Shown piece after piece: positions 38,976 through 59,913 of a stretch of 64,000 nucleotides of DNA. The number at the start of each line of letters is the position of its first letter. Position 1 is the stretch's first letter. The position numbers and the translations under genes are program-made. The stretch comes from a virus. Location of the stretch: positions 29,499-93,498 of IMG/VR virus record IMGVR_UViG_3300025030_000064; one strand, 5' to 3'. Under the pieces are notes generated by a model that was given only the letters and a program-made list of their open reading frames with translations, was not told where the DNA came from and did not search any database.

Positions 38976-39422
38976 TTAACCGCCATATTTAATGTAGTCT
39001 TTTAATATCCTTTCGGGTATTTTAAAAGTTGTATGATAACCATCAAGCCATTCGTTAAAGGCGGTTAACGTAACCTCCGCACTATCCTCGCTCTTGCTAA
39101 CATCAACTAAGGGTGCATTTTTTGCAGTTTCAATCGAAGTTTTACCGCCGCACCTTTTTAAAATACTTTCTACGTCTATATCTTTTGGCATCACTGGCTC
39201 TATTGGATAACACCATTCAAACATTTTCACTTCTTCTTCGGTCATCGGAAATCGTCCTGCAAATGCTGGCTCCCAAACATATCCAAGTGAGTTTTCGTCA
39301 ACATACATTCGGTTAGATGCCCTTGCCTGTGCAATTAATTCATGGTGTAAATCATTACTGCTAATTATTTTTCCTCCATGTATTGCCAAAAATTCAAGTA
39401 ATCTTTTTAAATCATTTTCCAT
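38976..39422 (-). CDS. Hypothetical protein starting inside an attC loop
   Basis: Peptide NAPLVDVSK is encoded by the left attC arm and core. Confidence 0.7.
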   Translation of the reverse strand: MENDLKRLLEFLAIHGGKIISSNDLHHELIAQARASNRMYVDENSLGYVWEPAFAGRFPMTEEEVKMFEWCYPIEPVMPKDIDVESILKRCGGKTSIETAKNAPLVDVSKSEDSAEVTLTAFNEWLDGYHTTFKIPERILKDYIKYGG

Positions 39423-39492
39423 CGCTCAAAGTTTATATTGTTATTATTTAAAATTGATTTCATTTAACGCACCTTAGTTGTGTTCATTAGAA
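39095..39492 (+). repeat. attC-like site with a coding loop of about 350 bp
   Basis: TGCTAAC-at-CAACTAAGGGTGC (39104-39116) pairs with GCACCTTAGTTG (39469-39480) with one extra G; right core is ATTAGAA. Confidence 0.7.
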
Positions 39493-39511
39493 GACATCCC
39501 TTCGGGCTGTC

Positions 39512-39613
39512 TTCTAATGAGAGGCTTGAAACCGTTTCGAATGCCGCCCTTCGGGACGACCTTCTAACAATGGCTAAGAAGCCATTTAAACGGCTCCAAG
39601 CCTCTCGTTAGTG
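39512..39613 (+). repeat. attC-like site
   Basis: TTCTAAT-GAGAGGCTTGAAACCGTTT...AAACGGCTCCAAGCCTCTC-GTTAGTG. Confidence 0.7.
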
Positions 39614-39631
39614 GCAATTGTTTTGTTTAAA

Positions 39632-40291
39632 TTAAAAAGCCAACGCACTCTGCAAATTTTTCAAATTTGTAAAAGGTTTTGTCCATTGCTCTGCCATAGC
39701 TTTTGCCAATCCATCAGGTGTTTTACTTCTCAATCGCCTGGCAACTTCATTATTATTACTTGTACTTGTTTGTCCCATATAACTGTATTTTGATTTTCCG
39801 CTTTTTGTTTTTTTAGAGTTGTATTCAATAAATACAGGCTCAACCATTTGTGTAGGTTCTAAGTTTGGTAAGTTTTTCAGCCACAAACAAGTTGATTTTT
39901 TATAAGCATCTCCAAACCAAAACGGCTGTACAATTTGGTCTGGCTTTCTAAATTCACTACTCATTATACCTATTGGGTTCTCAACTGCAATTTTCGGTAT
40001 CTCACAATGTGCTAATGCTAAAAAGAAACTAATTGATTTTTGTTGCCTTCCATCTTTTCGCTTCTGTTCAAAATGTGCTGCACCACTTACAGCTAAATCC
40101 GTACAAGGCGGAAAAAATATTCCCATCTCCCAATTGCCTCCGTATATTACATCAAAAATATTTTCCTTAAAATGCCACTCAGGATGTCCGCCACTACATT
40201 CTTGTATATCGCAACTAAAGGCTTCATGTCCTAATTTTCGCAACTCAATTGTTACCGCTTGTGATTCTTCGCAACCAACTAATATTTTCAT
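39632..40291 (-). CDS. Phage DNA cytosine methyltransferase (cassette gene)
   Basis: ILVGCEES, SCDI, FPPCT, VENP, KSTCLW and RSKT motifs. Confidence 0.8.
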   Translation of the reverse strand: MKILVGCEESQAVTIELRKLGHEAFSCDIQECSGGHPEWHFKENIFDVIYGGNWEMGIFFPPCTDLAVSGAAHFEQKRKDGRQQKSISFFLALAHCEIPKIAVENPIGIMSSEFRKPDQIVQPFWFGDAYKKSTCLWLKNLPNLEPTQMVEPVFIEYNSKKTKSGKSKYSYMGQTSTSNNNEVARRLRSKTPDGLAKAMAEQWTKPFTNLKNLQSALAF

Positions 40292-40367
40292 CTTCTATGT
40301 TTTTAAATGGCTTACACACGCCACCCTTTTTTTAATTTAAACAAAACAATTGTAAAGGCTAAAGCCC

Positions 40368-40429
40368 CACTAACACAGGCTAAAACAACATTGCGAAAAG
40401 CAACGATTGTTTAGCCTCATCCGTTATTT
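40368..40429 (+). repeat. attC-like site, last in array 1
   Basis: CACTAAC-ac-AGGCTAAAACAA...TTGTTTAGCCT-catcc-GTTATTT, with an extra base in the left arm. Confidence 0.8.
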
Positions 40430-40561
40430 ACAAATCCAAATCTTTTTCTGATCTTTCATTATCTGCTTTATTATCTAAGGCATTATATTTCTCTTCTAAC
40501 TCTTCATCTGATAGTTCAGATAAGTAGTTATTAAGGTTGTCATCTTCTTTACCAAGTATTA

Positions 40562-40813
40562 TCATAGCATTGCTCCATCTAATCCATAACTAATAGCATC
40601 TTTAATGTTACATCTTTGTACAATAGTATCACAAGCTGCTCCACCATCAAAATGATATATCTCAACATTCCAATGAGGATTCTCGCCTGGCACTTCTTTA
40701 AAAAGATGTACTTCTATATAATGCTTTCTATATGTAGCTGAGAAGTTATACTTATCATTTTTAGTGATATTCTTATTTTGGATTATTCTTAATCTATCGC
40801 CTCCTATTTTCAT
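40562..40813 (-). CDS. Hypothetical protein
   Basis: Packed ORF. Confidence 0.65.
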   Translation of the reverse strand: MKIGGDRLRIIQNKNITKNDKYNFSATYRKHYIEVHLFKEVPGENPHWNVEIYHFDGGAACDTIVQRCNIKDAISYGLDGAML

Positions 40814-40814
40814 A

Positions 40815-41117
40815 TTAAAATGGTAGATCGTTAGGATTAGGATTAAGGTCGCTTATTATATTCTCATTAGATATAGGTTCTTCTTTAACTATTGGAACAG
40901 GTTCAAGCATTTCGTCAATAGCAACAGTTGTTTTATTCCATCCATCTACCTTACCTCCAAAATATTTTTGTCCATTACCTTGCTTGATCCATAATGCCAT
41001 ATCTCTCTCTATTCCATTAAGCATTATTTTTCCTCTAAAGTCAGGATGATTTTCTTCTCTTTTATGATCATTCTTAAAGATAACAAAATTACCTTCACTT
41101 AATCTATTTGCTTCCAT
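40815..41117 (-). CDS. DUF736-like putative ssDNA-binding protein
   Basis: FKND..HPDFRG...ALW motif and an SSB-like C-terminal DLPF. Confidence 0.55.
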   Translation of the reverse strand: MEANRLSEGNFVIFKNDHKREENHPDFRGKIMLNGIERDMALWIKQGNGQKYFGGKVDGWNKTTVAIDEMLEPVPIVKEEPISNENIISDLNPNPNDLPF

Positions 41118-41268
41118 TATTCTTCCATTATTAATTGTTCTAATTCATCTACATGTCCACAGTTTTGACAATACATTGCAGATTGTGTAATATAAACACT
41201 ATCACTTTTACATTCACTACAACGAGGAACGTCTTTTGCTTCATCATTTAGTACTGATTCTATTTTAC

Positions 41269-41577
41269 TCATAGTTCTTTAGGTTTAGGAGTATTAAACA
41301 TAGGATTCTCTGGCATTGGCAATGCATCTGAAAACTCTCTTCTATCTACTATATTACCATTAGATAGCATCCCAGCATAACCACTTTTACAAAGTTCTAT
41401 TGTTTTTAATAGTTTTATTTCCTTTTCAAATTGAAATCTCCAATACTCTTTAGCTATCTTAGATTTAACTGCATCTATAAATATTTTAGTAGTAATTAAA
41501 TCTTTAATCTTAATTGATTTATCGTATGCATCTGCTGCTTCTTGAAGTCGCAATTCAAGATTTTCAATTTTATTCAT
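41269..41577 (-). CDS. Hypothetical protein
   Basis: Packed ORF. Confidence 0.6.
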   Translation of the reverse strand: MNKIENLELRLQEAADAYDKSIKIKDLITTKIFIDAVKSKIAKEYWRFQFEKEIKLLKTIELCKSGYAGMLSNGNIVDRREFSDALPMPENPMFNTPKPKEL

Positions 41578-41789
41578 ATTAATCCTTTTATATCTTTAAT
41601 TCGTATTATTGCTTTTTCAGCCCATTCAGGAACTTTATCTTTTCCACTTTGCAAGCATTCTATAACCCATTCAGCATTCTCATCTGACATCATATCAATA
41701 CTAGTTTTAGTAAAGTAATCCTTATCATGAATCCAACATCTATCTAATATAGAAGAGAAATATTCTTTTGATTCAATCTCTTTATTCAT
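41574..41789 (-). CDS. Hypothetical protein
   Basis: Packed ORF. Confidence 0.6.
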   Translation of the reverse strand: MNKEIESKEYFSSILDRCWIHDKDYFTKTSIDMMSDENAEWVIECLQSGKDKVPEWAEKAIIRIKDIKGLI

Positions 41790-41971
41790 TATGCTTCTCT
41801 ATCTACATTTAAAGTACATACAACAATTTCCATAGTGTCATCTTCTAATCCACCTAATTCTGTTTCTTCACATGATGTAACTTCTTCAAAGTGTTCTTCT
41901 GTAGTAGGAACATAAACTGTTAAGTCCTGATTAACTTTTTGCAACTGTTCAATTAATTCTGATACTCTCAT
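41789..41971 (-). CDS. Hypothetical small phage protein
   Basis: MRVSELIEQL N-terminus common in small phage proteins. Confidence 0.6.
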   Translation of the reverse strand: MRVSELIEQLQKVNQDLTVYVPTTEEHFEEVTSCEETELGGLEDDTMEIVVCTLNVDREA

Positions 41972-42320
41972 TTTGATTCTTTTTTAAGTTTAAAATTATA
42001 TTTTTTTGTTTTACGTTCAACATCTTTATATTTCCATTTAAAACCCCATGCATTTAATCTTTTTTCATTTAAAACATTTACTATATTAGAAGAAGAAGAA
42101 TGACCTAATTCTTTTGCAGCAGCCGTAGCAGACTCCCATTCTTTAACAAAATTATCATCTAAATCATATTGTATTATAGGAATCATTATTTTTAGTAAAG
42201 TTTCTGTTGTGATTTACATTTTCCATTTTTATATTGTTTCCATCTATTTATAATATCATTAGATTGTCCAATGTAAATCTTTTTTGAAGGACTAGTGATT
42301 TTGTAGATACCTATTATCAT
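41968..42320 (-). pseudogene. Split GIY-YIG / NUMOD1 homing endonuclease
   Basis: 42192-42320 translates MIIGIYKITSPSKKIYIGQS...KLY*; 41968-42186 is a NUMOD1 domain (IIQYDLD..VKEWESA..AA...GFKWKY). Confidence 0.75.
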
Positions 42321-42439
42321 AATATAAAAACCAGTAGTCTAACAAAGGCTTGTCCGTTTGAGGAGATTCCTCTTTGGCATTGTTAAAGCTACTGGATTTT
42401 TTAATGTTTTCATACGAACAAGCACTACAAAAATAATAC

Positions 42440-42922
42440 TTACTTATGAATAATCCTAATAATTTTACCAAACCCTTGTGGCATATCTTTAAACTTCATA
42501 TCTATCGGTTCGAGAATATCAATATGTTTACTCCCTTGTACTATATCCTTAACCACTAACACACGAACAACACTATCTAAGACAAGATAAATACTATCAC
42601 CAAAGTTTACCTTAGTATAGAGTAAATCTTTACTTATAGCACACCATACACCGTAAGAATAATCTTTGATATGATCTCCACTTGCTGTAATGAATGGACT
42701 TGAATCGCATTGTGCTATTGTAGGCTGGTATGAAGTAACCTTCACGTTAATATCTACTATCCTTGTATTAGCCATTCTAAAAATACTATCTTGTGATAAA
42801 GTATCTAACGGTTCCTTATGACTACATTGACTGATATATGCTCCTGTAGATAATACCATACAACCAAACAAGGTCATAAAGGCTATCTTAGCTATTATAC
42901 TTATACCATCATTTGCACTCAT
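42440..42922 (-). CDS. 3D-domain (MltA-like) cell-wall enzyme, membrane anchored
   Basis: VTSY..QCD..PFITASG, CAIS.DL, KD and HIDIL motifs; N-terminal TM. Confidence 0.7.
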   Translation of the reverse strand: MSANDGISIIAKIAFMTLFGCMVLSTGAYISQCSHKEPLDTLSQDSIFRMANTRIVDINVKVTSYQPTIAQCDSSPFITASGDHIKDYSYGVWCAISKDLLYTKVNFGDSIYLVLDSVVRVLVVKDIVQGSKHIDILEPIDMKFKDMPQGFGKIIRIIHK

Positions 42923-43118
42923 CTACTAATTCTTTTGGTTTATGTACTTCTGTCTGTAATCCTTTACTTCTTAGTTTCATCTCCATAAGTTGTCTTGCAT
43001 GTTTAGACTTCCAATTATCAAAAGCACAACCATCCCATGCATGAGGTAAGCTAAAGGTTAATTTACCATCAATAGCTGCTACATATACATCATCTATCTT
43101 TACTGATTCTTTTCCCAT
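42909..43118 (-). CDS. Hypothetical protein
   Basis: Packed ORF. Confidence 0.55.
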   Translation of the reverse strand: MGKESVKIDDVYVAAIDGKLTFSLPHAWDGCAFDNWKSKHARQLMEMKLRSKGLQTEVHKPKELVDECK

Positions 43119-43119
43119 G

Positions 43120-43407
43120 TTAATTCATTATTATTGTTTGATTATTAATTCTCCAGAATAACTTATCTGATTCTTTCTTTAACTCTATAACATAACTACC
43201 ACTAACCTTTCTTATCTCTATTACTCTTAATGGTTCCATTATAGCAGTTAGCATATCTAAGTTAAGCATATCTCCTACATGTATCTTTATATTATCTACA
43301 TTCAATCCAGTAACCTTATCTTCACTATTGACTATTACTCCTACTTCGGTAATACCATCACCATAAATAAATAATTTATCCCCTGCTATGAATTGAAAAC
43401 TAATCAT
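43120..43407 (-). CDS. Hypothetical protein
   Basis: Packed ORF. Confidence 0.6.
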   Translation of the reverse strand: MISFQFIAGDKLFIYGDGITEVGVIVNSEDKVTGLNVDNIKIHVGDMLNLDMLTAIMEPLRVIEIRKVSGSYVIELKKESDKLFWRINNQTIIMN

Positions 43408-43904
43408 AAACCATATTTAACTATAAAGTCAGCCACTTCAGTATTATTCTTAGCTACTATAACTTTCCAACCTTCCATACAGTTATCATGAAGATATTTA
43501 TGGAATAGTTTTAGCTTAACCGGAAAAACATCATTTGGGAAACCTTTTGTTTCAAGAATCACCTTAAGATTATTGAATACAAAATCTGGTGTCCATGTTA
43601 TAGGCAAATAGGTTTTATTACCATATTTAAATCCTGATATGATTATAAATGTCTTATGGAATATAAATTCTTCCTTACCGTATTTAAGTCTCTTATATGT
43701 ATCCATTTCAAGCTTAGAATCGAATACTATACCATTCCATTCGTGTTTAGAAGCATTCCTGATTTTCTTATTCCCTTTAACTACCTTCCTTAGCGGTTCA
43801 GATAGTTCATTACTCTTTAATCTACCTTTCTTATCTTGTACTATAGATGTACTTCTTATCATCTCCTGAAATTCTTTAGCTGACATTTTCTGCTGCTCGC
43901 TCAT
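43404..43904 (-). CDS. DUF1064-like PD-(D/E)xK endonuclease
   Basis: FDSKLE, WTPDF, ILETKG. Confidence 0.75.
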   Translation of the reverse strand: MSEQQKMSAKEFQEMIRSTSIVQDKKGRLKSNELSEPLRKVVKGNKKIRNASKHEWNGIVFDSKLEMDTYKRLKYGKEEFIFHKTFIIISGFKYGNKTYLPITWTPDFVFNNLKVILETKGFPNDVFPVKLKLFHKYLHDNCMEGWKVIVAKNNTEVADFIVKYGL

Positions 43905-44064
43905 CTTTAAACGATATATAGTTAAGTTTTACTTTATCACAGGCAATGATAATATCATCCATTTGCGATTGTGTTAGTATTATCTCATGTTCATTATACA
44001 TCAAGTCAAATAATGGTTGATATAATTCTGCTATTTCTTTTTGATTATTACTTTTACAAGCCAT
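43876..44064 (-). CDS. Hypothetical protein
   Basis: Packed ORF. Confidence 0.55.
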   Translation of the reverse strand: MACKSNNQKEIAELYQPLFDLMYNEHEIILTQSQMDDIIIACDKVKLNYISFKDERAAENVS

Positions 44065-44278
44065 CTTTAAATAGTTTTTCTAATAATTTACTATTATATC
44101 CTTTCATTGCTCCACCAGTACCAAAAAATATTATACTGCTACATTTATTCTTTTTAGATAATTTAGGTTTAGCATCTTTCATTATTTTTAATACTACTTC
44201 ATCTGGGAAATCAGAAGCACATTCATCTTGCCAGAAGAATAATTTTGGAGGTTTGCCACCTTTACTTATTTCATCCAT
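44054..44278 (-). CDS. Small protein resembling a fragment of the crAss terminase ATPase
   Basis: FFWQDE...P.L...IIFFGTGG. Confidence 0.35.
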   Translation of the reverse strand: MDEISKGGKPPKLFFWQDECASDFPDEVVLKIMKDAKPKLSKKNKCSSIIFFGTGGAMKGYNSKLLEKLFKDGL

Positions 44279-44577
44279 TAGAATTTGAGGTTATGTAAAT
44301 TATTAACCCATTCATTAAACATAAGTTTTATAAATGGTAAAAATGGTTCATAATTATCTAACTGTTCGTCAAAGTATCTATTATCATTTTCGCTACACCA
44401 TAATACTTTATCTCCGAATCCAACCATATCAACATTCCCATCTGTAGAATAGAAAAACTGTGATTCTAATTCTTCTTGCTTATCAAATAATTCTTCGTTA
44501 AGCTTAATTACTGTATCTAAATATTCATTAGTATTGTCCTTAAAAGGACTTAAATCTACTCCTTTGTCATCAAACAT
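44278..44577 (-). CDS. Hypothetical protein
   Basis: Packed ORF. Confidence 0.6.
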   Translation of the reverse strand: MFDDKGVDLSPFKDNTNEYLDTVIKLNEELFDKQEELESQFFYSTDGNVDMVGFGDKVLWCSENDNRYFDEQLDNYEPFLPFIKLMFNEWVNNLHNLKF

Positions 44578-44677
44578 AATTTTATACTTTTTTATTTATA
44601 AAAGTAAAGGAGAGTATTACCTCTCCTCTACCAAATCCAATTATTAATCCCAAAACAAATAACTATGAAAAACATTG

Positions 44678-44709
44678 TAAATATAAATCACTTTCATAGT
44701 AAAAGCAAA
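44678..44709 (-). promoter_or_regulatory. Bacteroidota-like promoter
   Basis: TTTG, 20-bp spacer, TATATTTA on the - strand in an intergenic gap. Confidence 0.45.
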
Positions 44710-44710
44710 T

Positions 44711-44932
44711 TTATCTTTCTAATACTTGATCTGCTATAGTATCAAGACTTGACCAAAATAGTTGTCCTATATAATCATCTCCAAGTTGCCTGGCTATCTT
44801 TTTCATATCATCATCACTAATTTCCATTAACTGTTTTTTAGTGAATTTAGGGTTGCCGTCCATATTTTCTAATTGAAGAAGGTCTTCTCTACATACAGAA
44901 GTTACTTCAAAAGGTTCTGATAAGTTATTCAT
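44711..44932 (-). CDS. Hypothetical protein
   Basis: Packed ORF. Confidence 0.6.
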   Translation of the reverse strand: MNNLSEPFEVTSVCREDLLQLENMDGNPKFTKKQLMEISDDDMKKIARQLGDDYIGQLFWSSLDTIADQVLER

Positions 44933-45279
44933 GGTTTAGTTGCATTAGCTATTAACTCAAATAATGATTCTTTAGGTTCTTCTGTTTGTATTGGTCCATC
45001 AAGCAAGTATGCATGAACATAACCACTACTATACAGATTAAACCATGTTATCTTTTCATTAGGCTTCATAAGATGGCTTTCTCTTATCTTACCACATGTT
45101 ATCTCATCTAAGTCATTAATATGTTCCATAGGCTTTAAAAACCATACTCCATTAGTGCTTATCTCTATATAAAGTTGTAAGGCATCTGAGAAGTATATCT
45201 CAGCTTTTACTTCTGGTGGAAAGTTACCAAACGCATTCGGTAGGTAGCTCTCTCCAATTAGTTCAAATAGGTTATTCAT
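44929..45279 (-). CDS. Hypothetical protein
   Basis: Packed ORF. Confidence 0.6.
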   Translation of the reverse strand: MNNLFELIGESYLPNAFGNFPPEVKAEIYFSDALQLYIEISTNGVWFLKPMEHINDLDEITCGKIRESHLMKPNEKITWFNLYSSGYVHAYLLDGPIQTEEPKESLFELIANATKP

Positions 45280-45656
45280 AAGTTATCGTAAAAAATTTTT
45301 ATTGCTCTTTGAATATTGTAGTAATCTCTTTTACTATCTTCTGATAATGCTGAGAAAAATAAATTAGTTCCTTGACTTGACTTTATCTCATCCATTACTT
45401 GCATTAGCTTTATTACTTTATTTTTTAATCTTTTCATTTTCTATTTTGTTTTAATCCTTCGTAATTAATTTTAATAAAATGTTTTGTTTCGCAAGTAAAT
45501 GACTCTCCATTTAATTAAGTCCATGATGTACATCATAGTCATACCATAATTTACTTACTGCTTCTTCTAATGATTCACATTTATAGTCTTGTTTAATATC
45601 ATAGTAAATACCTATTGCTCCTGACTGTCTTCCGTGAAATGAAAATAAATATGTCT

Positions 45657-50859: not shown

Positions 50860-51096
50860 TTATTGAATAACAAAAACCTGATTCATGAGTTTAATATACA
50901 TAACTTTACCACTTGCTATTCTTACCTTTGCTCCTTTATAGGTTATCTTTTCTTTCTTAGCATATTCTTATATTGTCATAAGTCCAAACTTTGATACTAA
51001 ATGTTCAAGTATTTCAAGTTCTTCGTTCATTAGAATATGATTCTCATTTGATGCTTTTATGTACCTAATAGATACATTTTCATATAGTTTACTCAT
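50860..51096 (-). pseudogene. Paralog of the 58601-58837 wHTH gene with an in-frame TAA at codon 43
   Basis: MSKLYENVSIRYIKAS...GLMTI*EYAKKEKITYKGAKVRIASGKVMYIKLMNQVFVIQ; stop at 50968-50970. Confidence 0.85.
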
Positions 51097-51130
51097 TGGT
51101 CTTATTTATTATACTATGAGTAGCGGAATG

Positions 51131-51496
51131 TTAGCCAAAAGAAATTTTCGGGCATAAGTGCTTAATTGACGCTCCCATCATCTTAATAAATTTATCTGCA
51201 ACTTTTTCATTTGGAAATCTAAACATTCCTGTTGCTGTATTGATTGTTGTTGGTTCGTGGCATACGGTATAAAAATGCGGTTTTGGATTTTCAGCTAATG
51301 CCACATAATTATTTTGGTTCAATCCGTAATCAAACGTCCATTTAGGTTCTTTAGATAAAAGTTGCTTCCAAATTTTAAATGCCTTTCGTTGTGCGGTTAT
51401 AAATTCTTGCTCTGTAACCGAAAATTTCTTTTGGCTAACAAGTGCTTTATTCAATGCCTTACTTTTCGGCTTCGTATTAACTTTTTTCTTTTCCAT
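51131..51496 (-). CDS. Cassette protein starting in an attC loop
   Basis: ATG in the loop, KALNKALVSQ encoded by the arm, stop is the TTA of the core. Confidence 0.75.
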   Translation of the reverse strand: MEKKKVNTKPKSKALNKALVSQKKFSVTEQEFITAQRKAFKIWKQLLSKEPKWTFDYGLNQNNYVALAENPKPHFYTVCHEPTTINTATGMFRFPNEKVADKFIKMMGASIKHLCPKISFG

Positions 51497-51563
51497 AATA
51501 TTTGTATCTCTAATTAAGTTTTGTCTGTTAAGTCGGTACTAAATAAAGCCCCGTTCGTTACCG
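51433..51563 (+). repeat. attC-like site
   Basis: GGCTAAC-aa-GTGCTTTATTCAATGCC...GGTACTAAATAAAGCCC-cgttc-GTTACCG. Confidence 0.8.
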
Positions 51564-51749
51564 CCAATTTTAAGACGGCATTTTCCAACTGTTCGAACTT
51601 GTTTTTATCCACCCTGCATTTATTCGCCCTAATTCAACTAATCCGTGCATATATTCGTACATAAGTTCATCATTTTCATACATTTCAACTAACCTATTCC
51701 AATTTTCTATAAATGGTTTCCAAATAGGACACATTAGTTTTATTTTATT

Positions 51750-52040
51750 TTATTTTTCCAAATTAAAACAATCGTCTAGTTCTATTTGTACGTTCCAATT
51801 AAGGTTGCTCACATCAACTTCGATAGATTCTTTTACGGTTATTTTTTCGAGTTTTGACAACGTGTAAAAATGTCTGTCAATCCAATAACCATAAGAACCT
51901 CCATTCGCTTGTAGCGGCTTAAAATTAGGAATAAAACTAATGTCAAATAGATTCTTTTTACGGAAGGCAAAAGTTTTATTTCCAATCTTAAAATGGTTCG
52001 AATAAGTGATGATGTATTTTTCTTGTAAAAGACTATCCAT
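51750..52040 (-). CDS. Hypothetical protein to the left of a second attI-like junction
   Basis: Intact 96-aa ORF with NGGSYGYWI. Confidence 0.65.
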   Translation of the reverse strand: MDSLLQEKYIITYSNHFKIGNKTFAFRKKNLFDISFIPNFKPLQANGGSYGYWIDRHFYTLSKLEKITVKESIEVDVSNLNWNVQIELDDCFNLEK

Positions 52041-52084
52041 TTGATTATCAGTTTAAAATATGGGTGGCTGTGGTATATAAGATG

Positions 52085-52342
52085 TTATAAGTCAGTTTGC
52101 CCATAAAGGTATCCGCATCCATCAGGGCAGTACCATCTAACATCGTTTGCTACTTTGTATTTAAGTGGGTGCTGGCAAACCGAACTTATAACATGGGCTT
52201 TATTCAATAATTTAATTTTTAGTAACTCTCTCATTTCATGATGCACTTCAATCAATTTTGTTCCATCAAGCGCACATTTCTTCGGCACAGCTTTGTATGC
52301 TATTTTCAAAATTTCGTTTATTAAGTCGTTATCTATTGTCAT
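52085..52342 (-). CDS. Cassette protein with a C-terminal Cys/His (Zn-finger-like) module
   Basis: Likely ATG at 52342 in the attC loop; LLNKAHVISS encoded by the arm; CQHP...CPDGC. Confidence 0.7.
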   Translation of the reverse strand: MTIDNDLINEILKIAYKAVPKKCALDGTKLIEVHHEMRELLKIKLLNKAHVISSVCQHPLKYKVANDVRWYCPDGCGYLYGQTDL

Positions 52343-52386
52343 ATCGTATAAAATTAAATTACTAAATAAAGCCCCAACCGTTAGCT
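52186..52386 (+). repeat. attC-like site with a coding loop
   Basis: TTATAAC-at-GGGCTTTATTCAATAATTTAATTTT...AAAATTAAATTACTAAATAAAGCCC-caacc-GTTAGCT. Confidence 0.8.
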
Positions 52387-52455
52387 GCAAGCACTACATT
52401 TGTACTTCGATTATAGTTCATAGTTGAAAATTTTTAATATTTTTTGCCTACGCTT

Positions 52456-52746
52456 CTAATCATTGTGTTTAGACAAGTTTCCTACAAGTTGGCATAATCC
52501 ACCAAGCCCGTCATCAAGTTTGTGATGTATAAAATCACTTTCATTGGTTTTGCCTTCTAAAAAACTTATTATTAGTTGTAATTCTTGCAATCTATCAATA
52601 TACCAGTTTTTTCTTGGTACGTGTGAATTATTCAAACGAATTGACCGTGATTTGTATTTCAGTCTTTCGATTTGCAAATCCTCGTCCTTAATAAGTTTTT
52701 TAAATACTTTAACTCGTTTTTTTAGAGTTGTTATTGTTTTTTCCAT
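52456..52746 (-). CDS. Hypothetical cassette protein
   Basis: Flanked by a perfect 20-bp inverted repeat. Confidence 0.65.
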   Translation of the reverse strand: MEKTITTLKKRVKVFKKLIKDEDLQIERLKYKSRSIRLNNSHVPRKNWYIDRLQELQLIISFLEGKTNESDFIHHKLDDGLGGLCQLVGNLSKHND

Positions 52747-52828
52747 CCTTAAAAAATATTAAAAATTTTCTTTCGTATTTCAATCATAGTTCAGTTCTTA
52801 ATAATGGCACGTTTCATAGCCCCAACCG

Positions 52829-53008
52829 TTATAAAACAGTTTGCTTTGGAACTGTCTTACAGCATTTATAACAAAATCTTTTATTGCCTCCTGCATCGAT
52901 ACAATATTGCCAAGGATGACTACAAACCGATTTTATAACATCAGATAATAACAATTTTTCAGTGCTATTATCAATCTTTTTTACTTGTTTTTTGCTTTTG
53001 TTTTTCAT
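52829..53008 (-). CDS. 59-aa cassette protein with a Zn-finger-like module (absent from the ORF track)
   Basis: MKNKSKKQVKKIDNSTEKLLLSDVIKSVCSHPWQYCIDAGGNKRFCYKCCKTVPKQTVL*. Confidence 0.7.
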   Translation of the reverse strand: MKNKSKKQVKKIDNSTEKLLLSDVIKSVCSHPWQYCIDAGGNKRFCYKCCKTVPKQTVL

Positions 53009-53050
53009 ATTAAATTTATTTAAACTGTTGTTATCTGCGTACCGTTATAG
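52933..53050 (+). repeat. attC-like site
   Basis: TTATAAC-at-CAGATAATAACAATTT...AAACTGTTGTTATCTG-cgtacc-GTTATAG. Confidence 0.8.
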
Positions 53051-53245
53051 GGCATTTGGATTGAACAACCTAATAGCCTTTAAAGGTGCTTTCATTGTCA
53101 AATCACTCATTACATCATCCACATCATTTAAAATAGTATGATGAACTGTGCCTTTTAATTTCATTGATATTTTAACCCTTGCATCCATCAATTCTTTGTG
53201 GAGCAATTCGTATAGTTCGGTTTCTTTTTTCTTACTGATTTTCAT
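53045..53245 (-). CDS. Hypothetical cassette protein
   Basis: Stop codon is the TTA of the core site. Confidence 0.7.
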   Translation of the reverse strand: MKISKKKETELYELLHKELMDARVKISMKLKGTVHHTILNDVDDVMSDLTMKAPLKAIRLFNPNAL

Positions 53246-53257
53246 AAAACAAACGCC

Positions 53258-53351
53258 CTATAACATTACATACACAAAAGCGGGGGCGAAGTGCTAAAAT
53301 GTATGTTCGGGTTAAAGAAGCCCCGCCTTCGTGTATGCTTTACCGTTATAA
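53258..53351 (+). repeat. attC-like site
   Basis: CTATAAC-atta-CATACACAAAAGCGGGG...CCCCGCCTTCGTGTATG-ctttacc-GTTATAA. Confidence 0.85.
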
Positions 53352-53589: not shown

Positions 53590-53656
53590 AATTTTTACTG
53601 TGTTTTATATCAAGTTTTCGTTTAAAACAGTGCTTATTTCCACCGTTAGACAACAT

Positions 53657-53881
53657 TTAATCCGTCACCTCTGGAATGTTCCCATTTAATATATCCGTGA
53701 ATGATATTACCTTGAAATGACCACCATCAATAGCAATCCAATCCTCACACATATCCGACCAACGAACATGATAACATAGTCTTGGCTCTAAATCATCACT
53801 TGGTTTTACCATTTCAACTCCAACTATTTCTGCTAGAACTCCTGTTTTATAAGAGTATCTATGAACTCCTACTAAATATAC
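53657..53881 (-). pseudogene. 5'-truncated cassette ORF
   Basis: Open frame VYLVGVHRYSYKTG...IPEVTD* preceded directly by TAA, with no start at its 5' end. Confidence 0.45.
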
Positions 53882-53902
53882 TTAACGTTAGGACTTAATT
53901 CG

Positions 53903-55231
53903 TTATTTACTTTGGTCATAAGCAACAACTTTTAATTCACTTTCCTCTCTTTCTACAAAATCCATCAACATTGTTTTACCGTACTCTTTAGCTATCGCTT
54001 CCATCTCTTTAAGTGACTCATTATCAAGGTCATTAGCACATCCAATAACAATTAAAGGACTATCATTAATGGCACACTGTATTCTTGCTCCTGTGAGTAT
54101 AGCTTTAGACTTACATACCTGATTCTCTTTAAAGGATAGTTCGCCAAGCATTAGACCATCATCTGTTAGTCTTAGGTCTTTTACTGGGTTCTTACTATTC
54201 TTAATGATATCATCTTGTTTGTCTCTTTCTAACTGTACTGCAGCATCAGTCTTTTCCCATTCATCATGATTAACTACTCTCTTAGCCTTTACTTCATCAT
54301 ATGACTTCTTTTTAAGTACAAGAGCATCTATCTCAGCTATCTTCTCTTTACCTGTCTGAATACGTTGCTTTAACACATCAGCATTAGGAACATCAGATGT
54401 CTGTAGCTTCACTAACTCTTCTCTACTCTTATTTAGTTCTTCAGTAGCTTTATTAAGAATCTTGATATGGTCTTGTAGTTGTTTAATCTGTTGTTCAGAC
54501 TTTGCTATATCAGAAATATTTGTTTCTATACTCTTATCTGCATGAGCGATCTTCTCTGCTATACCTTTCTGTTTTTCTATAGCTACTGCGATACCTGAAT
54601 ACTCTTCTTCTAATTCTTTTAGCTTATCGAAGTTTACTTGTCTGACAGAAATAAGGTACATCTGATCATCTGTGAGCTCATAACCCTTTTCTATCTCCGT
54701 TAATTGCTTAACAGTGGCATTAAGGTTTGTTCTTTTATCGTAGTACTGCTTTTCTAATAGAGTAGATAGTTCATAGGCTTTAGCTTGTTCTTCATCTAAT
54801 AGAGAAAGGAATATCTTCTTAGCTTCTTCTTTACCTTTAGCAGACATGCTCATCTGCATGAATTCTTCAGCAGTAAAAGTGTTGTACTTAAAGATATTTC
54901 TAATCTGGTTGACAGACTTTACAATCTTTCCTTCTTCATCAATAGCTACAAACTTAGCATCTCCTGACTTATCAAATGTTGCTCTTACTATGTATCTCTT
55001 TCCATCTGCTCCTACAAGGTTAATAGCTTCAATAGAGCCATTCTCTTCTCCTATTGTTACTGGTTGGTCAATATCGAGCTTTGCAGTGTGTAAGGCTTTA
55101 ATCGCCTGTAAAAAGCTCGATTTCCCTTTATCGTTAGAACCTGATATGAAGTAGATATAGTTATCAGCTAAGTCTATTTCTTTGTTTTTTAACTTTTTGT
55201 AGTTTTTGAAAATTAATTTAATTTCTGGCAT
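53903..55231 (-). CDS. SbcC/SMC-like AAA ATPase
   Basis: N-terminal Walker A GSNDKGKSS and a long coiled coil. Confidence 0.75.
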   Translation of the reverse strand: MPEIKLIFKNYKKLKNKEIDLADNYIYFISGSNDKGKSSFLQAIKALHTAKLDIDQPVTIGEENGSIEAINLVGADGKRYIVRATFDKSGDAKFVAIDEEGKIVKSVNQIRNIFKYNTFTAEEFMQMSMSAKGKEEAKKIFLSLLDEEQAKAYELSTLLEKQYYDKRTNLNATVKQLTEIEKGYELTDDQMYLISVRQVNFDKLKELEEEYSGIAVAIEKQKGIAEKIAHADKSIETNISDIAKSEQQIKQLQDHIKILNKATEELNKSREELVKLQTSDVPNADVLKQRIQTGKEKIAEIDALVLKKKSYDEVKAKRVVNHDEWEKTDAAVQLERDKQDDIIKNSKNPVKDLRLTDDGLMLGELSFKENQVCKSKAILTGARIQCAINDSPLIVIGCANDLDNESLKEMEAIAKEYGKTMLMDFVEREESELKVVAYDQSK

Positions 55232-55252
55232 ATTATTTTATTTTAGTTAATT

Positions 55253-57067
55253 TCATACCTCAATAAATTCATTTTTATCTAGGTCACATACATATCTTAT
55301 AACCTTATCTTCTCCTTGTCCAGCATCTCTTATCTTCACTCCTTCAATAATAAACATCTTCTTTAATAGTTCATATTGTTCCTTTGCTGTCAAATCTCTA
55401 TCTCCAAAAAGATATAGGTCACGTTTATCTCTTACTTTCTTCTCTTTGTACTTACCATTATGTAACCATGTATAAATAGCCATTATTCCTCTCTTATACT
55501 TATCTTCTTCTGTAGAGTCATTAATACTCTGCATTAGTCTGTAATAAGCAGTATAGGCTATAAAAAGGCTATTCATTGTTGCTTCTGTACCATCAGCCAT
55601 ATGTTCCCTACCCATGATAACATCTCTTACCTTATCCCATGTAGCTTGTTTAAGGTTTACAATAGGATTCTTAAAGTTAGTAGTAAAGCTATCACTATTA
55701 GGATTTAGTTTCCAAAAAGACTTCTCAAAGTCCTGGTCGGTAAACTTCAATTCTTCAGTAGGCATACCTAACGCTCTTTGTTTATACACATCCATAAGGT
55801 CAGGATATCTACTTGGGAGATTAGCTAATGCAACAGAATTAGCATAGTTAACGAAAGTACCACTACCCTTAATAGTTGTCTCTCTTGGTCTGTAACCGTC
55901 TTTAAGATTATACTTTGAACCATGTTCTTTAGTGACATGATGAAGAGCATATATACATGCATTTGTTTCAGTTCTTATTTCTACAAGAACATCCATGATA
56001 TACATATCCTTTTCTGTCTGGTCCTTGAATCTTATCGTACTACCTATTAAACCAATATTATCAACTACTATGATAAGCTCTTTTTTATTAGCTTTTGCTT
56101 GTTCATTAACCTTACGAGAGAATTTCTTTAACTCTTTCTCTGTTATCTTAACATCAACAAATTTGATATTAAATCCTTTCTTACTTAATCGTATTAATGA
56201 ATTAGCAATAGTCTGTTTCTCTTCTACACATAGCTTATTGTCTTTAGATAATAGTTTCCTATCTCTATAGCCAGTATCCATAGATATCATTCTTCTCACA
56301 ATCTTTTCTTTTGGATCTTCCATTGATACCCATAGTACATCAATATCTTTATTGTTTTCACACACATGATACATAATAGCTATAGTGGCTGCGGTTTTTG
56401 CTGATTCTTTATCTGCTGCAAGCATGAAAATAGAGGACTTAGATAAGCCAAAGAGATTATCAAACTTAGGAAATTGTTTAGTAGCATAGATATTTGATTC
56501 TCTATTACTATTATCTTCAATCTCATTAGCTGCTGATTCAATACATTTTTCCATCTCTACCATCTCCTTGCTTCTTGTAAAGGCTAATAGAGAAGATATA
56601 CCATCAATATGATTATGTATCACATCATCTATATCTATATCATCAGTAAAACAATCTTGTTGTACTTGTTCGCTCAATCGTATTACTTCTCTTAGGATAT
56701 ACTTCTGTTGTATAATCCTCATGTGGAACATAGCATGAGAAGAAGAAGCTACTTTACCTGTTAATGTAGTAAGATAAAAGGCTCCTCCTACATCTTCAAG
56801 CTTTTGTCTATCTATTAGCTTATTCTTCACAGTAAAGATGTCTATAGGCTCATTCTTTTCATAGAGAGAATGAATAGCTTCATAGATAATCTTATTCTCA
56901 GGAGAATAAAACCAATCAGCTTTACATACGTCTAATACTCCTTTTGCCTGTTTCGGATCAATCATTATAGCTCCTAGAATTGTTTGTTCTATATCTATAT
57001 TTTGAGGCGGTATCTTAGATAGTACATCTACTGCTTTCTTTCTCTTATCTGTTTTATCTTTTTCCAT
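55253..57067 (-). CDS. dnaB: DnaB-like replicative helicase
   Basis: PPQNIDIEQTILGA N-terminal domain, SMED, IVVDNI, KGSG; degenerate P-loop. Confidence 0.85.
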   Translation of the reverse strand: MEKDKTDKRKKAVDVLSKIPPQNIDIEQTILGAIMIDPKQAKGVLDVCKADWFYSPENKIIYEAIHSLYEKNEPIDIFTVKNKLIDRQKLEDVGGAFYLTTLTGKVASSSHAMFHMRIIQQKYILREVIRLSEQVQQDCFTDDIDIDDVIHNHIDGISSLLAFTRSKEMVEMEKCIESAANEIEDNSNRESNIYATKQFPKFDNLFGLSKSSIFMLAADKESAKTAATIAIMYHVCENNKDIDVLWVSMEDPKEKIVRRMISMDTGYRDRKLLSKDNKLCVEEKQTIANSLIRLSKKGFNIKFVDVKITEKELKKFSRKVNEQAKANKKELIIVVDNIGLIGSTIRFKDQTEKDMYIMDVLVEIRTETNACIYALHHVTKEHGSKYNLKDGYRPRETTIKGSGTFVNYANSVALANLPSRYPDLMDVYKQRALGMPTEELKFTDQDFEKSFWKLNPNSDSFTTNFKNPIVNLKQATWDKVRDVIMGREHMADGTEATMNSLFIAYTAYYRLMQSINDSTEEDKYKRGIMAIYTWLHNGKYKEKKVRDKRDLYLFGDRDLTAKEQYELLKKMFIIEGVKIRDAGQGEDKVIRYVCDLDKNEFIEV

Positions 57068-57078
57068 TGTTGAATTTA

Positions 57079-57534
57079 TTATAAAATTCCTTCATCAGCA
57101 AAGCTATAGTATTTCTTTAAATCACCTGCTATAATTAAATGTTCAAGTAAGGAAATCTCAAAATACCTTGCTCCTTCTTTAATCTTCTTTGTTATATCAA
57201 TATCTTGGTCAGAAGGTTTTAAGTTACAACTTGGATGATTATGAATAAGTATTAATGCACTTGCTCCACAAAGAATAGCTTTTTGAAATATTAATCTTGG
57301 GTCCATTATTGTTCCAGCTATACCTCCTTGACTTATTCTTGTCCATCCTATCGTATTATGTGCTTTGTTTAAGTAAAGACATAAAGATTCTTCTGATAAT
57401 TCAACTGTATCTAGATTAAGTAGCTCTTTAGCTATTGTAAATACATCCGAGGATTGCTTAATCTGATATTTCTTTACATCTCCTGATTTATACTTTAAAG
57501 TAATCTCAGGCATTGTTGATTTATATTCTTTCAT
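57079..57534 (-). CDS. radC: RadC-like JAB-domain protein
   Basis: ISQGG...DPR, HNHPS..LKPS..D, LLEHLII. Confidence 0.9.
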   Translation of the reverse strand: MKEYKSTMPEITLKYKSGDVKKYQIKQSSDVFTIAKELLNLDTVELSEESLCLYLNKAHNTIGWTRISQGGIAGTIMDPRLIFQKAILCGASALILIHNHPSCNLKPSDQDIDITKKIKEGARYFEISLLEHLIIAGDLKKYYSFADEGIL

Positions 57535-57669
57535 AAGCCTCCTTCTGCATCTGAATAACTAATATCTCCATGTCCAGTACCACCTTGATCATTATCCATG
57601 TTACACTCTTCGTCTATGAGCATATCACAATCATCACAACTTCTATTATCGTTATAAGGGCAATTAGGG

Positions 57670-57855
57670 TTATTCATCTTCTATTTCTTCTTTTTCGTTA
57701 TTACATATCCATAAAGAAGTGTCTTCTTTGTTAGGATCTAATCCATATTCTCTTGTTAAAATAAATATTAAATCTTTAGCTTCTTGATAATTATTAGCTT
57801 GTATATTTAACAATACTTCATTATGCCAACTATGAATAAAAGTAAATGTTTTCAT
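57670..57855 (-). CDS. Hypothetical protein
   Basis: Packed ORF. Confidence 0.55.
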   Translation of the reverse strand: MKTFTFIHSWHNEVLLNIQANNYQEAKDLIFILTREYGLDPNKEDTSLWICNNEKEEIEDE

Positions 57856-57860
57856 TTGTT

Positions 57861-58379
57861 TTATTGTTTTAATTGTTGATATTCTAGTTTCAATTCTTCC
57901 TGTAGTAATGTAATCTTAGACCAACTAAATCCCTTCTCTTCTGCTAATCGTTCTCTTTGTATTTCAGTACCAAAATCATAAGCCAAATGCTCCCTAGCTG
58001 TTAACATTACGATATTCTTAGGGTTTAGTTTAAACTTATAATATTTATTCTGAGCTTTGGAAAGTACATGAGCAAATTGATTATAGTAGAAAGGACTATC
58101 CTTATCTACTAGCTTATCTCCTGATAGGAATGAGATATGAGGCATTGTGTTCCATATATGTTCAAACATCTCTTTCTCTGAATCAAATCCCCATAAGGAA
58201 TACTTATCTATATTTCTTTTAAGTACCTTACTATTATTCTTAACTATCTTTGAACAGTTATATCTTTTAGGTTTTATTATAGCTTTCTTTATTGGTTTAC
58301 CATGTTCCTTAGCCCAACATCACTTGCAGAGTTGTAAAGCAAACACTGGTCTATCATCATTAAGACATGTCTTAGCCAT
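57861..58379 (-). pseudogene. HNH-like protein with an in-frame TGA at codon 20
   Basis: MAKTCLNDDRPVFALQLCK*CWAKEH... continues in frame into 57861-58169 (FAHVLSK...NIVMLTAREH). Confidence 0.65.
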
Positions 58380-58382
58380 TAA

Positions 58383-58604
58383 TTATAAATACTTTTTGGA
58401 AAATTGTTTATATAATAAAGCCCAATATTCATGACCTTCTTTTGTCTTAGCCCAATGAAATCCATGACTAGGATTAAGTAAGTTTATACGATTATAGCCA
58501 TTTTGTTTTTGTACATTACAAAGATACTTATCTAATGCTTTATTTTTTTCTAAGAACTCTTTTAGTTCTCTTGTTAATACTATTAAAATAGGTTTGTCTT
58601 TCAT
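58383..58604 (-). CDS. Hypothetical protein
   Basis: Packed ORF. Confidence 0.6.
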   Translation of the reverse strand: MKDKPILIVLTRELKEFLEKNKALDKYLCNVQKQNGYNRINLLNPSHGFHWAKTKEGHEYWALLYKQFSKKYL

Positions 58605-58837
58605 TGTATTATAAATTTTTGGTTCATTAGTTCAATATACATAACCTTACCACTATTTATTCTCTTCTTAGCTCCATTATAGCTTATATTCTGCTCTTTA
58701 GCAAAGTCTGATAATGATGTTAGTTTATATCTTTGAACCAAATACTCTAATATTCTTAGTTCTTCATCCATTGTTATATGACCTTCTTCTGAAGATTTTA
58801 TATACCTATTTGCTACATTTTCATACAGTTTACTCAT
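58601..58837 (-). CDS. Small winged-HTH, excisionase-like DNA-binding protein
   Basis: SLSDFAKEQNISYNGAKKRINSGKV..IEL resembles HTH_17/Xis; next to the attI-like site. Confidence 0.6.
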   Translation of the reverse strand: MSKLYENVANRYIKSSEEGHITMDEELRILEYLVQRYKLTSLSDFAKEQNISYNGAKKRINSGKVMYIELMNQKFIIQ

Positions 58838-58891
58838 TGGTTCAATTTATTGTATTACGAGTAGTATGATGTTACCAAACATTGTATTAAT

Positions 58892-59263
58892 TTAAAAATT
58901 ATTTGCCATCGCACGTTCATAATCATCGTCAATTATTACAGTATCTTTTCCTATTGCATCGCATAACGGTATTGTTTCTCCATCTTCGGGGTGTCTATAA
59001 ACTGAAACAAACATTCCGTCCTGAAACTCCACCGTAGAAGAATATCCTGCACATACAAATAATTGGTCGCCTTCATAAATTTCTTTCCCATTACTGTCTT
59101 TCAGTCCTGTATATTGCCCAACATTATCAACCGTCCAAGATGTTTCTCCATTGGTTATTTCCCAATTACCATTTGTCTGTTTAACCAAATAGCCATACGC
59201 CCAATATTCTTGTCCGTTTATTCCTTGAAACCATCCTCTAAATTTAATTTCTCTATTTTCCAT
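58892..59263 (-). CDS. YopX-family protein (cassette gene)
   Basis: REIKFRG...GQYTGLKDSNGKEIYEGD. Confidence 0.9.
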   Translation of the reverse strand: MENREIKFRGWFQGINGQEYWAYGYLVKQTNGNWEITNGETSWTVDNVGQYTGLKDSNGKEIYEGDQLFVCAGYSSTVEFQDGMFVSVYRHPEDGETIPLCDAIGKDTVIIDDDYERAMANNF

Positions 59264-59321
59264 CGCTTAAATAATTTTTAAATTAATACAACGAGCCTAC
59301 GCTCAAATTCCTTACGCACTT

Positions 59322-59394
59322 TGGTAACATCACCTTTGCGCTATTCTCCAGCCGCACTATCCAACGCACAACAGACGCAAAGCTGCGGTTAGTG
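59322..59394 (+). repeat. attC-like site
   Basis: TGGTAAC-at-CACCTTTGCGCTATT...AACAGACGCAAAGCTG-cg-GTTAGTG. Confidence 0.75.
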
Positions 59395-59400
59395 GCAAGC

Positions 59401-59913
59401 TCAAAGAACCACTATCGTACTTTTGATGTCTTTTGTTACTTCTTTCCATCCTTGCGTTCCTTTCCAAATTATTGGTTTTATTTGCCTTACATCTTCGTAA
59501 ACATGGCAATACAAATCTTCCCGCCACTTCACAAAACACTTGTCGGCATCTTTTGGCTTCATTTTCCTACTATCAACTAATTTACCTATTGCAATTCCGT
59601 AACCATTCAAATCAAGGGTTCCGCTATCCCGATTCATCGCACTAAGCATTTTATAATATAAATCTGTTCCGCAAAGTTTGTGCTCAATATCTTCACTATA
59701 TGCTTTCAAACTTGTACATATCAATACCCACCCACGCACATTTGTATTCCATGTTCGAGTTTCAATTTTACCATAAAGCATTGCGGTTGCAAATGGTTGT
59801 TTCCAAGATAAAGCCAATAATTTTTGGTCTACAGGAAATGAGCCAGCCACTAACACAGGCTCAACCGCAATAGCGGGTTTAGTGGGTAAGTCAAATAAAG
59901 TGCCTTGTATCAT
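59401..59913 (-). CDS. ASCH-domain protein (cassette gene, starts in the attC loop)
   Basis: ALSWKQPFA...GKIETR.W..NVRG.VLI...KGTQGW. Confidence 0.85.
   Translation of the reverse strand: MIQGTLFDLPTKPAIAVEPVLVAGSFPVDQKLLALSWKQPFATAMLYGKIETRTWNTNVRGWVLICTSLKAYSEDIEHKLCGTDLYYKMLSAMNRDSGTLDLNGYGIAIGKLVDSRKMKPKDADKCFVKWREDLYCHVYEDVRQIKPIIWKGTQGWKEVTKDIKSTIVVL

Follow-up and report, generated by a model that had tools for sequence, protein, structure and literature searches.

Can one stretch of phage DNA be a hairpin site of the recombination type and, at the same time, a part of the genes that it separates? The question arises from a 64,000-nucleotide (nt) stretch of DNA, referred to here as the window, that covers positions 29,499-93,498 of the 93.5-kb IMG/VR virus record IMGVR_UViG_3300025030_000064. 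An initial annotation of the window pointed to five genes whose start codons lie between the two arms of hairpins resembling integron attC sites and whose reading frames cross one arm and the AAC core. The record encodes a crAss-type major capsid protein, which identifies the window as part of a crAss-like phage, and this phage is present in groundwater metagenomes from six studies. The minus strand carries every gene from 34.4 kb to 64 kb of the window, and on this coding strand two kinds of inverted repeat, X and Y, are interleaved and have their 4-base pair (bp) cores in common. X is a TAAC-arm...arm-GTTA hairpin bounded by TAACG and TGTTA, and Y, of the form GTTA-arm...arm-TAAC, spans a gene body. 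The reading that we favor, and to which we give about an even chance, is that X serves as an expression module that closes on itself, provides the start codon and a leader peptide, and is reshuffled by homologous recombination between repeated hairpins.

Evidence that X is an element in its own right comes from other phages. A metagenome scan with the shared 3′ arm of X returned 119 loci, most of them chance matches. In at least 16 of these loci, whose flanks are unrelated, the whole element at 51434-51562 is kept at 72-95% identity, with TAACG and GTTA as the limits of the similarity. R1, a covariance model derived from conserved X sequences, was then used to search the window and 18 metagenome loci at a threshold of E<0.01, and it detected 48 elements arranged in same-strand arrays (6-7 elements in locus L047, 6 in L089, and 4-5 each in L105, L081, and L050). 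The X-bearing loci derive from different kinds of phage. A typical X is ∼125 nt long, with most family members at 118-134 nt. Its consensus fold is closed by a 5-bp helix, UAACG/UGUUA, with a G·U pair in 14/14 sequences; a 4-nt bulge confined to the 5′ side separates this helix from an 18-bp stem, in which another three G·U pairs are conserved. The median loop is 75 nt long, and A makes up 51% of loop positions as compared with 39.5% of the strand. Covariation of the arms in homologs, on which the initial annotation had staked its proposal, is present: compensatory changes occur in 18 of the 23 pairs, and double-change cells number 205 against 48 in shuffles, with none of 500 shuffles reaching 205. 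Across the 48 elements 95.5% of cells are paired, a figure that is somewhat inflated by an alignment fitted to R1's own structure, while slid controls pair at 35-46% only. The MAFFT alignment, which is independent of the hand, already contains T-A to G-C and T-A to C-G switches. The core helix is unvarying across the family, with the TAAC/GTTA pair in 43-47 of 47 elements, and 47 of the 48 elements are imperfect hairpins with AAC...GTT at their base.

An internal ATG is in frame with the core GTT, which is read as Val, in 32 of 47 elements, and the frame stays open for at least 25 codons beyond the core. The same X leader precedes at least 14 unrelated bodies of 28-132 codons. In the close family the leader consists of M, a Lys-/Asn-/Glu-rich stretch, and then (K/E)ALNKA(L/H)V, and because the ATG-to-core distance is 54, 57, or 63 nt, leaders differ by whole codons. 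The residue after the core Val is Met, Ser, Asn, Thr, or Ile; all have A-initial codons, as the A of GTTA requires. At the other end of the genes, 13 of the 52 TAA stops in the gene block are followed by C, versus 12% C in the strand. The five minus-strand open reading frames (ORFs) of the window, the peptides encoded by their arms, and their codons are as first described. Four of the genes read the core as an in-frame GTT, and the fifth, 59401-59913, reads GTG TTA. Genes ending at 51131, 52085, 52829, 53045, and 60242 do use the TAA of a TAAC core as their stop, and the ATPase gene ending at 53903 does so as well.

True starts downstream of the core would have removed the coding role, and the homologs place the starts upstream instead. 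The N-terminal domain of 52085-52342 is conserved even in distant homologs, which also have a CxxC...CxxC tail. The conserved ∼90-residue domain of 38976-39422, start included, lies wholly upstream of the core; most of its 61 homologs end before the core, and the tail is common to P0008 and P0009 only. Leader length is matched in close and distant homologs of both 51131-51496 and 59401-59913. Homologs P0001-P0007 of 51131-51496 retain leader and body, and the copy in locus L065 is 93% identical.

In the window, Y is the statistically stronger feature of the two. Five Y pairs score ≥22, as against 0.43 in shuffles, and the top score is 44 versus a shuffle maximum of 30. Across 13 distinct bodies, taken from the window and the metagenome loci, the first 14-23 nt after GTTA are complementary to the last 14-23 nt before a TAAC that lies at the stop or just beyond it, in arm sequences that vary from body to body. 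Many Y bodies lack a start codon, and the next TAAC often provides their TAA stop. Between the Cys-rich paralogs at 52082-52194 and 52828-52939, GT in the left arm is replaced by AA and AC in the right arm by TT, a compensatory pair of changes that are both nonsynonymous. The VIKSVC...QTVL arms of 52829-53008 recur around other interiors in L097 and P0069. In L065, two A-to-G changes in the left Y arm produce G·T wobbles on the sense strand. Two short-loop Y hairpins, 39484-39520 and 38230-38267, are empty. As a separate observation, perfect inverted repeats lacking TAAC cores bracket the YopX gene 58892-59263 (23 bp; 58882-59291) and the 96-residue gene 52456-52746 (20 bp; 52426-52770), and the unit of the latter gene is also flanked in the reference by diverged ∼18-nt direct repeats.

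Individual sites in the window differ in how well they fit the family (Table 1). R1 detects three of them, 51434-51562, 52187-52385, and 52934-53049, and for the corresponding genes 51131-51496, 52085-52342, and 52829-53008 the proposed placement of the ATG in a hairpin loop is borne out. The loop of 52187-52385 holds ATG 52342 together with a 44-codon N-terminal domain, and its arms are common to 51434-51562. The 5′ core of 52934-53049 (TAAC, 53047-53044) doubles as the stop of the upstream gene 53045-53245, which itself begins 12 nt past the GTTA of the short hairpin 53259-53350. R1 scores are weak for this hairpin and for those at 38184-38235 and 40369-40428. For the two remaining genes, 38976-39422 and 59401-59913, the placement holds in part. 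Loops of up to about 350 bp had been proposed, and this is the weakest part of the original proposal: the long-loop sites 39098-39490 and 59851-60247 (∼390-400 nt) have a core and a 3′ arm, but the 5′ partner is uncertain, pairing extends over 7-19 bp, and R1 finds neither site even with filters off. A pairing energy of −23.1 kcal/mol (p 0.017) was obtained for the 5′ arm proposed at 39466-39490.

These sites are also where chance hairpins and spurious ORFs in AT-rich DNA have to be considered. The best upstream partner of each 3′ arm has an empirical p of 0.017, 0.014, 0.008, 0.19, and 0.020 for the sites in ascending gene order, the modest pairing of the two long-loop sites (p ∼0.02) was obtained at positions chosen for pairing, and the anchored X score rises above shuffles at one site only. 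As an account of the whole, chance is highly improbable given the covariation in 48 elements, conservation of the entire element in at least 16 unrelated contexts, Y pairs far above shuffles, frames open through the core, and conserved protein domains on both sides of the core. It is refuted for the three central genes and stands only for the 5′ partners at 39098 and 59851.

Table 1. Coordinates in the window of X and Y elements, associated genes, and the block absent from some populations
Feature	Position	Strand	Details
148-residue gene	38976-39422	−	Widespread ∼90-residue domain, then tail after core GAT GTT AGC (39101-39098)
Intergenic X-type hairpin (CTAAC..ATTAG)	39514-39611	−	Followed by empty Y-type hairpin 39484-39520
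Short X-type hairpin	40369-40428	−	R1 16.6 bits; upstream of DNA methyltransferase gene 39632-40291
Y of 121-residue gene body	51129-51440	−	Arms 51418-51440 and 51129-51151, 23/23 paired, both within the coding sequence; score 44
121-residue gene	51131-51496	−	Starts in X loop, reads core GTT (51439-51437), stops at TAAC 51133-51130
X element, 129 nt	51434-51562	−	R1 125.9 bits; ATG 51496 in loop; 3′ arm encodes ALNKALV
823-bp block absent from some natural populations	51537-52359		Genes 52085-52342, 51750-52040, 51570-51734
Y around C-module	52082-52194	−	Arms 52173-52194 and 52082-52103
85-residue gene	52085-52342	−	N-terminal domain in X loop, linker LLNKAHV from arm and core, Cys-rich C-module in Y
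Long X element, 199 nt	52187-52385	−	25-nt arms, 23/25 paired; R1 44.5 bits, E 5e-6
Y of 59-residue gene body	52828-52939	−	Score 23
59-residue gene	52829-53008	−	Lys-rich leader, core GAT GTT ATA, Cys-rich body, stop in TAACGG
Weaker X element, 116 nt	52934-53049	−	R1 30.2 bits, E 0.0004-0.004; duplex p 0.19; ATG 53008 in loop
Y around 66-residue gene 53045-53245	53039-53269	−	Arms 53250-53269 and 53039-53058; score 25
Short X-type hairpin, no ATG inside	53259-53350	−	R1 16.4 bits; −36.8 kcal/mol sense, −25.4 antisense
Y around ASCH-like body	59388-59854	−	Arms 59839-59854 and 59388-59403, 14/16 paired; score 22
170-residue ASCH-like gene	59401-59913	−	25-residue leader; core read GTG TTA GTG (59856-59848); 5′ partner 60247 weak
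85-residue gene	60242-60499	−	TAA stop is the TAA of the TAACGAAC core

Whether genes have been exchanged at these sites can be read from protein relatives. Among relatives of 52085-52342, residues 1-51 are 90-94% identical and the rest 18-32%, with the N-part joined to at least three other C-modules; P0072 has the opposite combination, with an N-part that is 13% identical and a C-module that is 88% identical. The ASCH-like proteins are likewise mosaic at the core: the leader of P0092 is 96% and its body 55% identical, as compared with 56% and 94% for P0089. The breakpoints of these mosaics (P0069-P0072, P0089, and P0092) were located at the protein level. An ASCH-like homolog in L003, which is 82% identical, has a continuous coding sequence minus a ∼24-nt patch that includes the core, and a copy of this patch occurs in the 3′ arm of hairpin 40369-40428. 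Judged from these sequences, the X and Y cores are the junctions between modules. A methyltransferase offers a parallel case. The window gene (phrog_757, 3.5e-61) starts 80 nt past the core, and its homolog L050:1462-2230 is fused in frame to an X-type leader through the core.

One crossover can be mapped. Contigs from two groundwater runs of different studies, X5 and X7, join position 51536 to 52360, with 16 letters that fit both sides, and lack the 823-bp block between them. The junction lies in 16 nt common to the 5′ arms of two X elements, 5 nt from the core. The deletion product retains the spacer of the upstream X element, and therefore the crossover occurred in the arm, at neither core. 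If the Logan assembly word is a 31-mer, as we assume, the 16-nt repeat is shorter than the word, and a false assembly join is not expected at 51536/52360. P0004, a read-through product of the deleted form, is encoded on a 563-nt contig, where a TAG to CAG change in the 5′ arm opens the ORF from upstream. Neighboring modules also occur in rearranged order in run X7.

In run X3, gene 52456-52746 has different flanks, and the breakpoints are no more than 2 nt from the ends of its 20-bp inverted repeats. This invites a different explanation: inversion switches, or transposons like miniature inverted-repeat transposable elements, that flip or move the enclosed segment. Perfect inverted repeats of 20-23 bp that are 130-435 bp apart would be in keeping with this, as Bacteroidales invertons have inverted repeats of comparable size. 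Yet the two orientations that mark such an inverton in a population were not both found in the contigs of four runs, where no strand-changing joints occur, although rare forms could escape contigs. Inversion would also put the coding sequence on the wrong strand, the arms differ among modules in a way that leaves no terminal repeats shared by one transposon family, and no Y1 transposase, other transposase, or invertase was found in the phage genome. We consider this explanation improbable. Two specific versions of it were dropped, inversion of 52426-52770 because the alternative flanks in run X3, compared by eye, are not the inverted reference flanks, and IS200/IS605-type ends because of the missing Y1 transposase.

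Which strand folds, and in which molecule, bears on what the hairpins do. The X elements of the window contain 26 G·U pairs when folded on the sense strand versus 7 on the antisense strand. In the Y arms of the 13 distinct bodies, 225 pairs are Watson-Crick, and G·T pairs number 13 on the sense strand as compared with 1 on the antisense strand; the seven extra bases in these arms are all in the left arm. R1 scores the sense strand at 116-142 bits and the antisense strand at ∼20, and folding energies favor the ORF sense strand in both X and Y. One-sided wobbles are the usual signature of a fold selected in the transcript, and these observations point to the mRNA as a better fit than the bottom-strand fold of attC.

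Integrons are among the closest known systems with recombination at such hairpins. An attC site measures 57-141 bp; each of its arms has an unpaired central spacer of 5-6 nt, a 6-bp stem sets the spacing of its 2-3 extrahelical bases, and the canonical site folds on the bottom strand, opposite the cassette ORF (Nivina et al. 2016, PMC5027507). Virulent phages are known to carry attC clusters that lack an integrase (CALINs), in some cases with methyltransferase cassettes, and IntI1 recombines these sites (Qi et al. 2023, PMC9892861). By analogy, X may be an attC-type single-stranded DNA site that a structure-specific tyrosine recombinase, of the host or novel, cuts at AAC/GTT, with the sites translated in addition. 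A cassette would then be one body plus the next X, and the complementary body ends would be an extended R box that forms in the excised circle. This integron-like reading is possible, and we hold it tentatively. It would account for imperfect hairpins with AAC...GTT at the base and extra bases on one arm, arms that covary with little sequence constraint outside the core, same-strand arrays of small accessory ORFs, and module boundaries that are sharp at the cores. Stops inside the TAAC core, the A-initial codons that GTTA predicts after the core Val, and the DNA methyltransferase in the cargo belong to the same pattern, as do bodies that all have ends complementary through the core in body-specific sequence.

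The differences from attC begin with the enzyme. The phage is without an integrase, as CALINs are, and no tyrosine recombinase was found in its genome; the sole integrase near any X, in L081, is generic and Xer-like and reaches 26 bits against a cutoff of 265 in the integron-integrase model. The one mapped crossover is in an arm rather than at a core. Whereas attC has a 7-bp R box, a two-sided spacer, and extrahelical bases, X has a 5-bp core helix with a fixed G·T pair, an unpaired spacer on one side, and no clear pair of extrahelical bases, and its better-folding strand is the ORF sense strand, the opposite of canonical attC. Complementarity of the body ends spans 14-23 bp here versus 7. Most X elements fall within the attC length range, as does the window element of 116 nt, but the element of 199 nt and the long-loop candidates are longer, and elements of 197-400 nt in general exceed the range. 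In addition, a start codon and leader lie inside X, bodies here often lack their own start, and the whole of X, loop included, is conserved across unrelated contigs. Of the idea that these sites are both coding sequence and recombination substrate, the reading through the core and the module junctions are supported. The identification of the sites as integron attC is not, with the missing tyrosine recombinase, the crossover in the arm, the sense-strand fold, and the one-sided spacer weighing against it.

Homologous recombination between repeated hairpins has a precedent in the PeSLs of T4-type phages, conserved promoter and stem-loop cassettes that mediate modular shuffling (Arbiol et al. 2010, PMC2839356; PMC4122927). 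As in that system, conserved hairpin motifs are repeated between small nonessential genes in hyperplastic regions, and recombination between repeats leads to insertion, deletion, and replacement; X is found in repeated arrays, with an 823-bp insertion/deletion between X arms and with different bodies behind the same X. The two systems differ in that PeSLs are intergenic and carry a sigma-70 promoter and a terminator, whereas X overlaps the coding sequence, donates a start codon and leader, fixes the frame at its 3′ boundary, and pairs with cargo that has complementary ends. A sigma-70 promoter and terminator scan of the region was uninformative; the X hairpins contain no T-runs, and the terminator scan calls none of them. 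A role for X as a promoter was dropped, as a near-match to the Bacteroidota −7 box consensus is present in the loop of just one X subfamily. A link to early promoters of crAss-like phages was also dropped, since none are known (10.1101/2020.03.07.982082).

Two further comparisons concern the leader. Synthetic attC sites have been embedded in protein-coding sequence and tested with IntI1 (Nivina et al. 2020, PMC7439510), so that, as in X, one DNA stretch is both a hairpin recombination-type site and an in-frame peptide linker; those sites are engineered, whereas X is natural and widespread and is known here from sequence. Conceptually, placing one short conserved leader before many bodies at a short core also resembles spliced leaders and the leader-body joining of nidoviruses, two common-leader RNA systems. 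Unlike in those systems, X and body are joined in the DNA itself, and the predicted protein includes the leader.

The structure with its covariation, the in-frame reading, the mosaic proteins, and one deletion by arm homology are direct observations, and the favored reading, of X as a self-closing and reshuffled expression module, would connect them as follows. The accessory-gene clusters would be chains of self-closing modules read on the coding strand. The X loop would supply the translation start, and the ORF would run through the 3′ arm (..ALNKALV) and the core, as GTT-Axx, into the next module. The helices would act mainly in mRNA, where they would close each module on itself, and the closing helix may keep the A-rich start region exposed whatever the neighboring sequence. 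Because X copies are homologous, being repeated and conserved among co-infecting phages, ordinary homologous recombination is proposed to add, delete, and swap bodies, and the fixed frame at the core would leave each new combination translatable.

Several points weigh against this proposal. Homologous recombination from X to X leaves the precise in-frame GTTA junction and the complementary ends of bodies unexplained. The unvarying core helix with its strictly kept G·T/G·U pair looks like a protein recognition site, and complementary cassette ends that include the core are a prediction of integron-type crossover at G|TT; the integron-like reading explains the unvarying core, the sharp boundaries, and the complementary ends better. 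The wobble asymmetry could also reflect folding of single-stranded sense DNA, and the pairing statistics for X carry the inflation mentioned above. Finally, a 15-codon deletion in P0004 takes out most of the left Y arm, and Y pairing may therefore be nonessential. These points leave room for a distinct phage-borne system that is not an integron, in which startless bodies with complementary ends are slotted at the TAACG/TGTTA core, behind the hairpin that provides start codon and leader, by a putative structure-specific enzyme and proteins are built in frame from standard parts. We hold this possibility more tentatively still than the integron-like one.

The surroundings of the elements add context. 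Minus-strand genes include those for a DnaB-type helicase, a RadC-like protein, an SMC/SbcC-like ATPase, the anti-CBASS protein Acb3, YopX, a DNA methyltransferase, and a Holliday-junction resolvase, along with many small ORFs; most of the small cassette proteins have no function assigned by Pfam or PHROGs. The resolvase is a 166-residue ORF at 43404-43904 that matches a PHROG Holliday-junction resolvase family (9e-20) and could in principle cut cruciforms extruded from long inverted repeats. The spacer that follows the methyltransferase gene, 39455-39620, has a branched fold at −74.5 kcal/mol on the sense strand (z −8.8) and −60.1 on the antisense strand; the fold includes two GAA-triloop hairpins of sequence CCCGAAGGG. 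The empty Y hairpin 38230-38267 and the short X 38184-38235 closely precede the Acb3 gene. In the loop of this X begins a 39-codon ORF, 38108-38227, that reads through the core. Its frame differs from that of the Acb3 gene, whose ATG (38133) lies 23 nt before the end of the ORF, and the arrangement resembles an upstream ORF with a coupling role more than a fusion. Directly downstream of two module clusters are the paralogous small genes 50968-51096 and 58601-58837, both with a MSKLYENV.. start; the 78-residue copy looks like a helix-turn-helix protein, without a significant Pfam match, and the 42-residue copy seems truncated or frameshifted. On the plus strand, an ORF of 4955 codons at 15465-30332 is probably the giant virion protein of crAss-like phages. 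The contig ends (1-100 and 93400-93498; window 63900-64000) consist of tandem copies of a 12-mer, GATGTTATCCCT and variants, whose unit contains TGTTA. The contig was probably cut inside this repeat, which perhaps encodes a 4-residue protein repeat.

Searches for relatives of the phage gave little. DNA and protein searches of a cultured-phage collection found no near relatives and, for the ATPase, distant matches only. Scans of IMG/VR with DnaB, the 121- and 148-residue proteins, alignments A1 and A3, and the 5′ arm motif found nothing, as did a first metagenome scan with alignment A1 and a genome scan with alignment A2. Rfam has no matches in the window, and there is no RNA data set among the sequencing runs listed for the phage.

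Clusters of attC-like sites in phages, recombination at conserved intergenic hairpins, and an engineered recombination hairpin that encodes a peptide (PMC7439510) are already known. In the literature searched, we found no natural conserved element with a start codon and leader peptide in its loop, none with a fixed frame at a 3′ core, and no startless bodies with complementary ends. Within that literature, X is the first natural hairpin recombination-type site found that routinely encodes part of a protein, which is otherwise a property of engineered sites only. Phage accessory regions carry antidefense genes, and the cargo beside X in this phage includes the Acb3 anti-CBASS gene and a DNA methyltransferase gene, so the element bears on how such regions turn over fast and yet stay expressed. 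As its sequence suggests, X would give any downstream body a ready-made translation start and a fixed frame, and its repetition across phages would make bodies, and even protein domains, swappable without breaking expression. One element would in this way tie the shuffling of genes to their expression. Should there be a dedicated enzyme, the system may become a tool for in-frame DNA assembly; should there be none, X would show how bacteria that initiate translation without Shine-Dalgarno sequences can insulate the start from its context.

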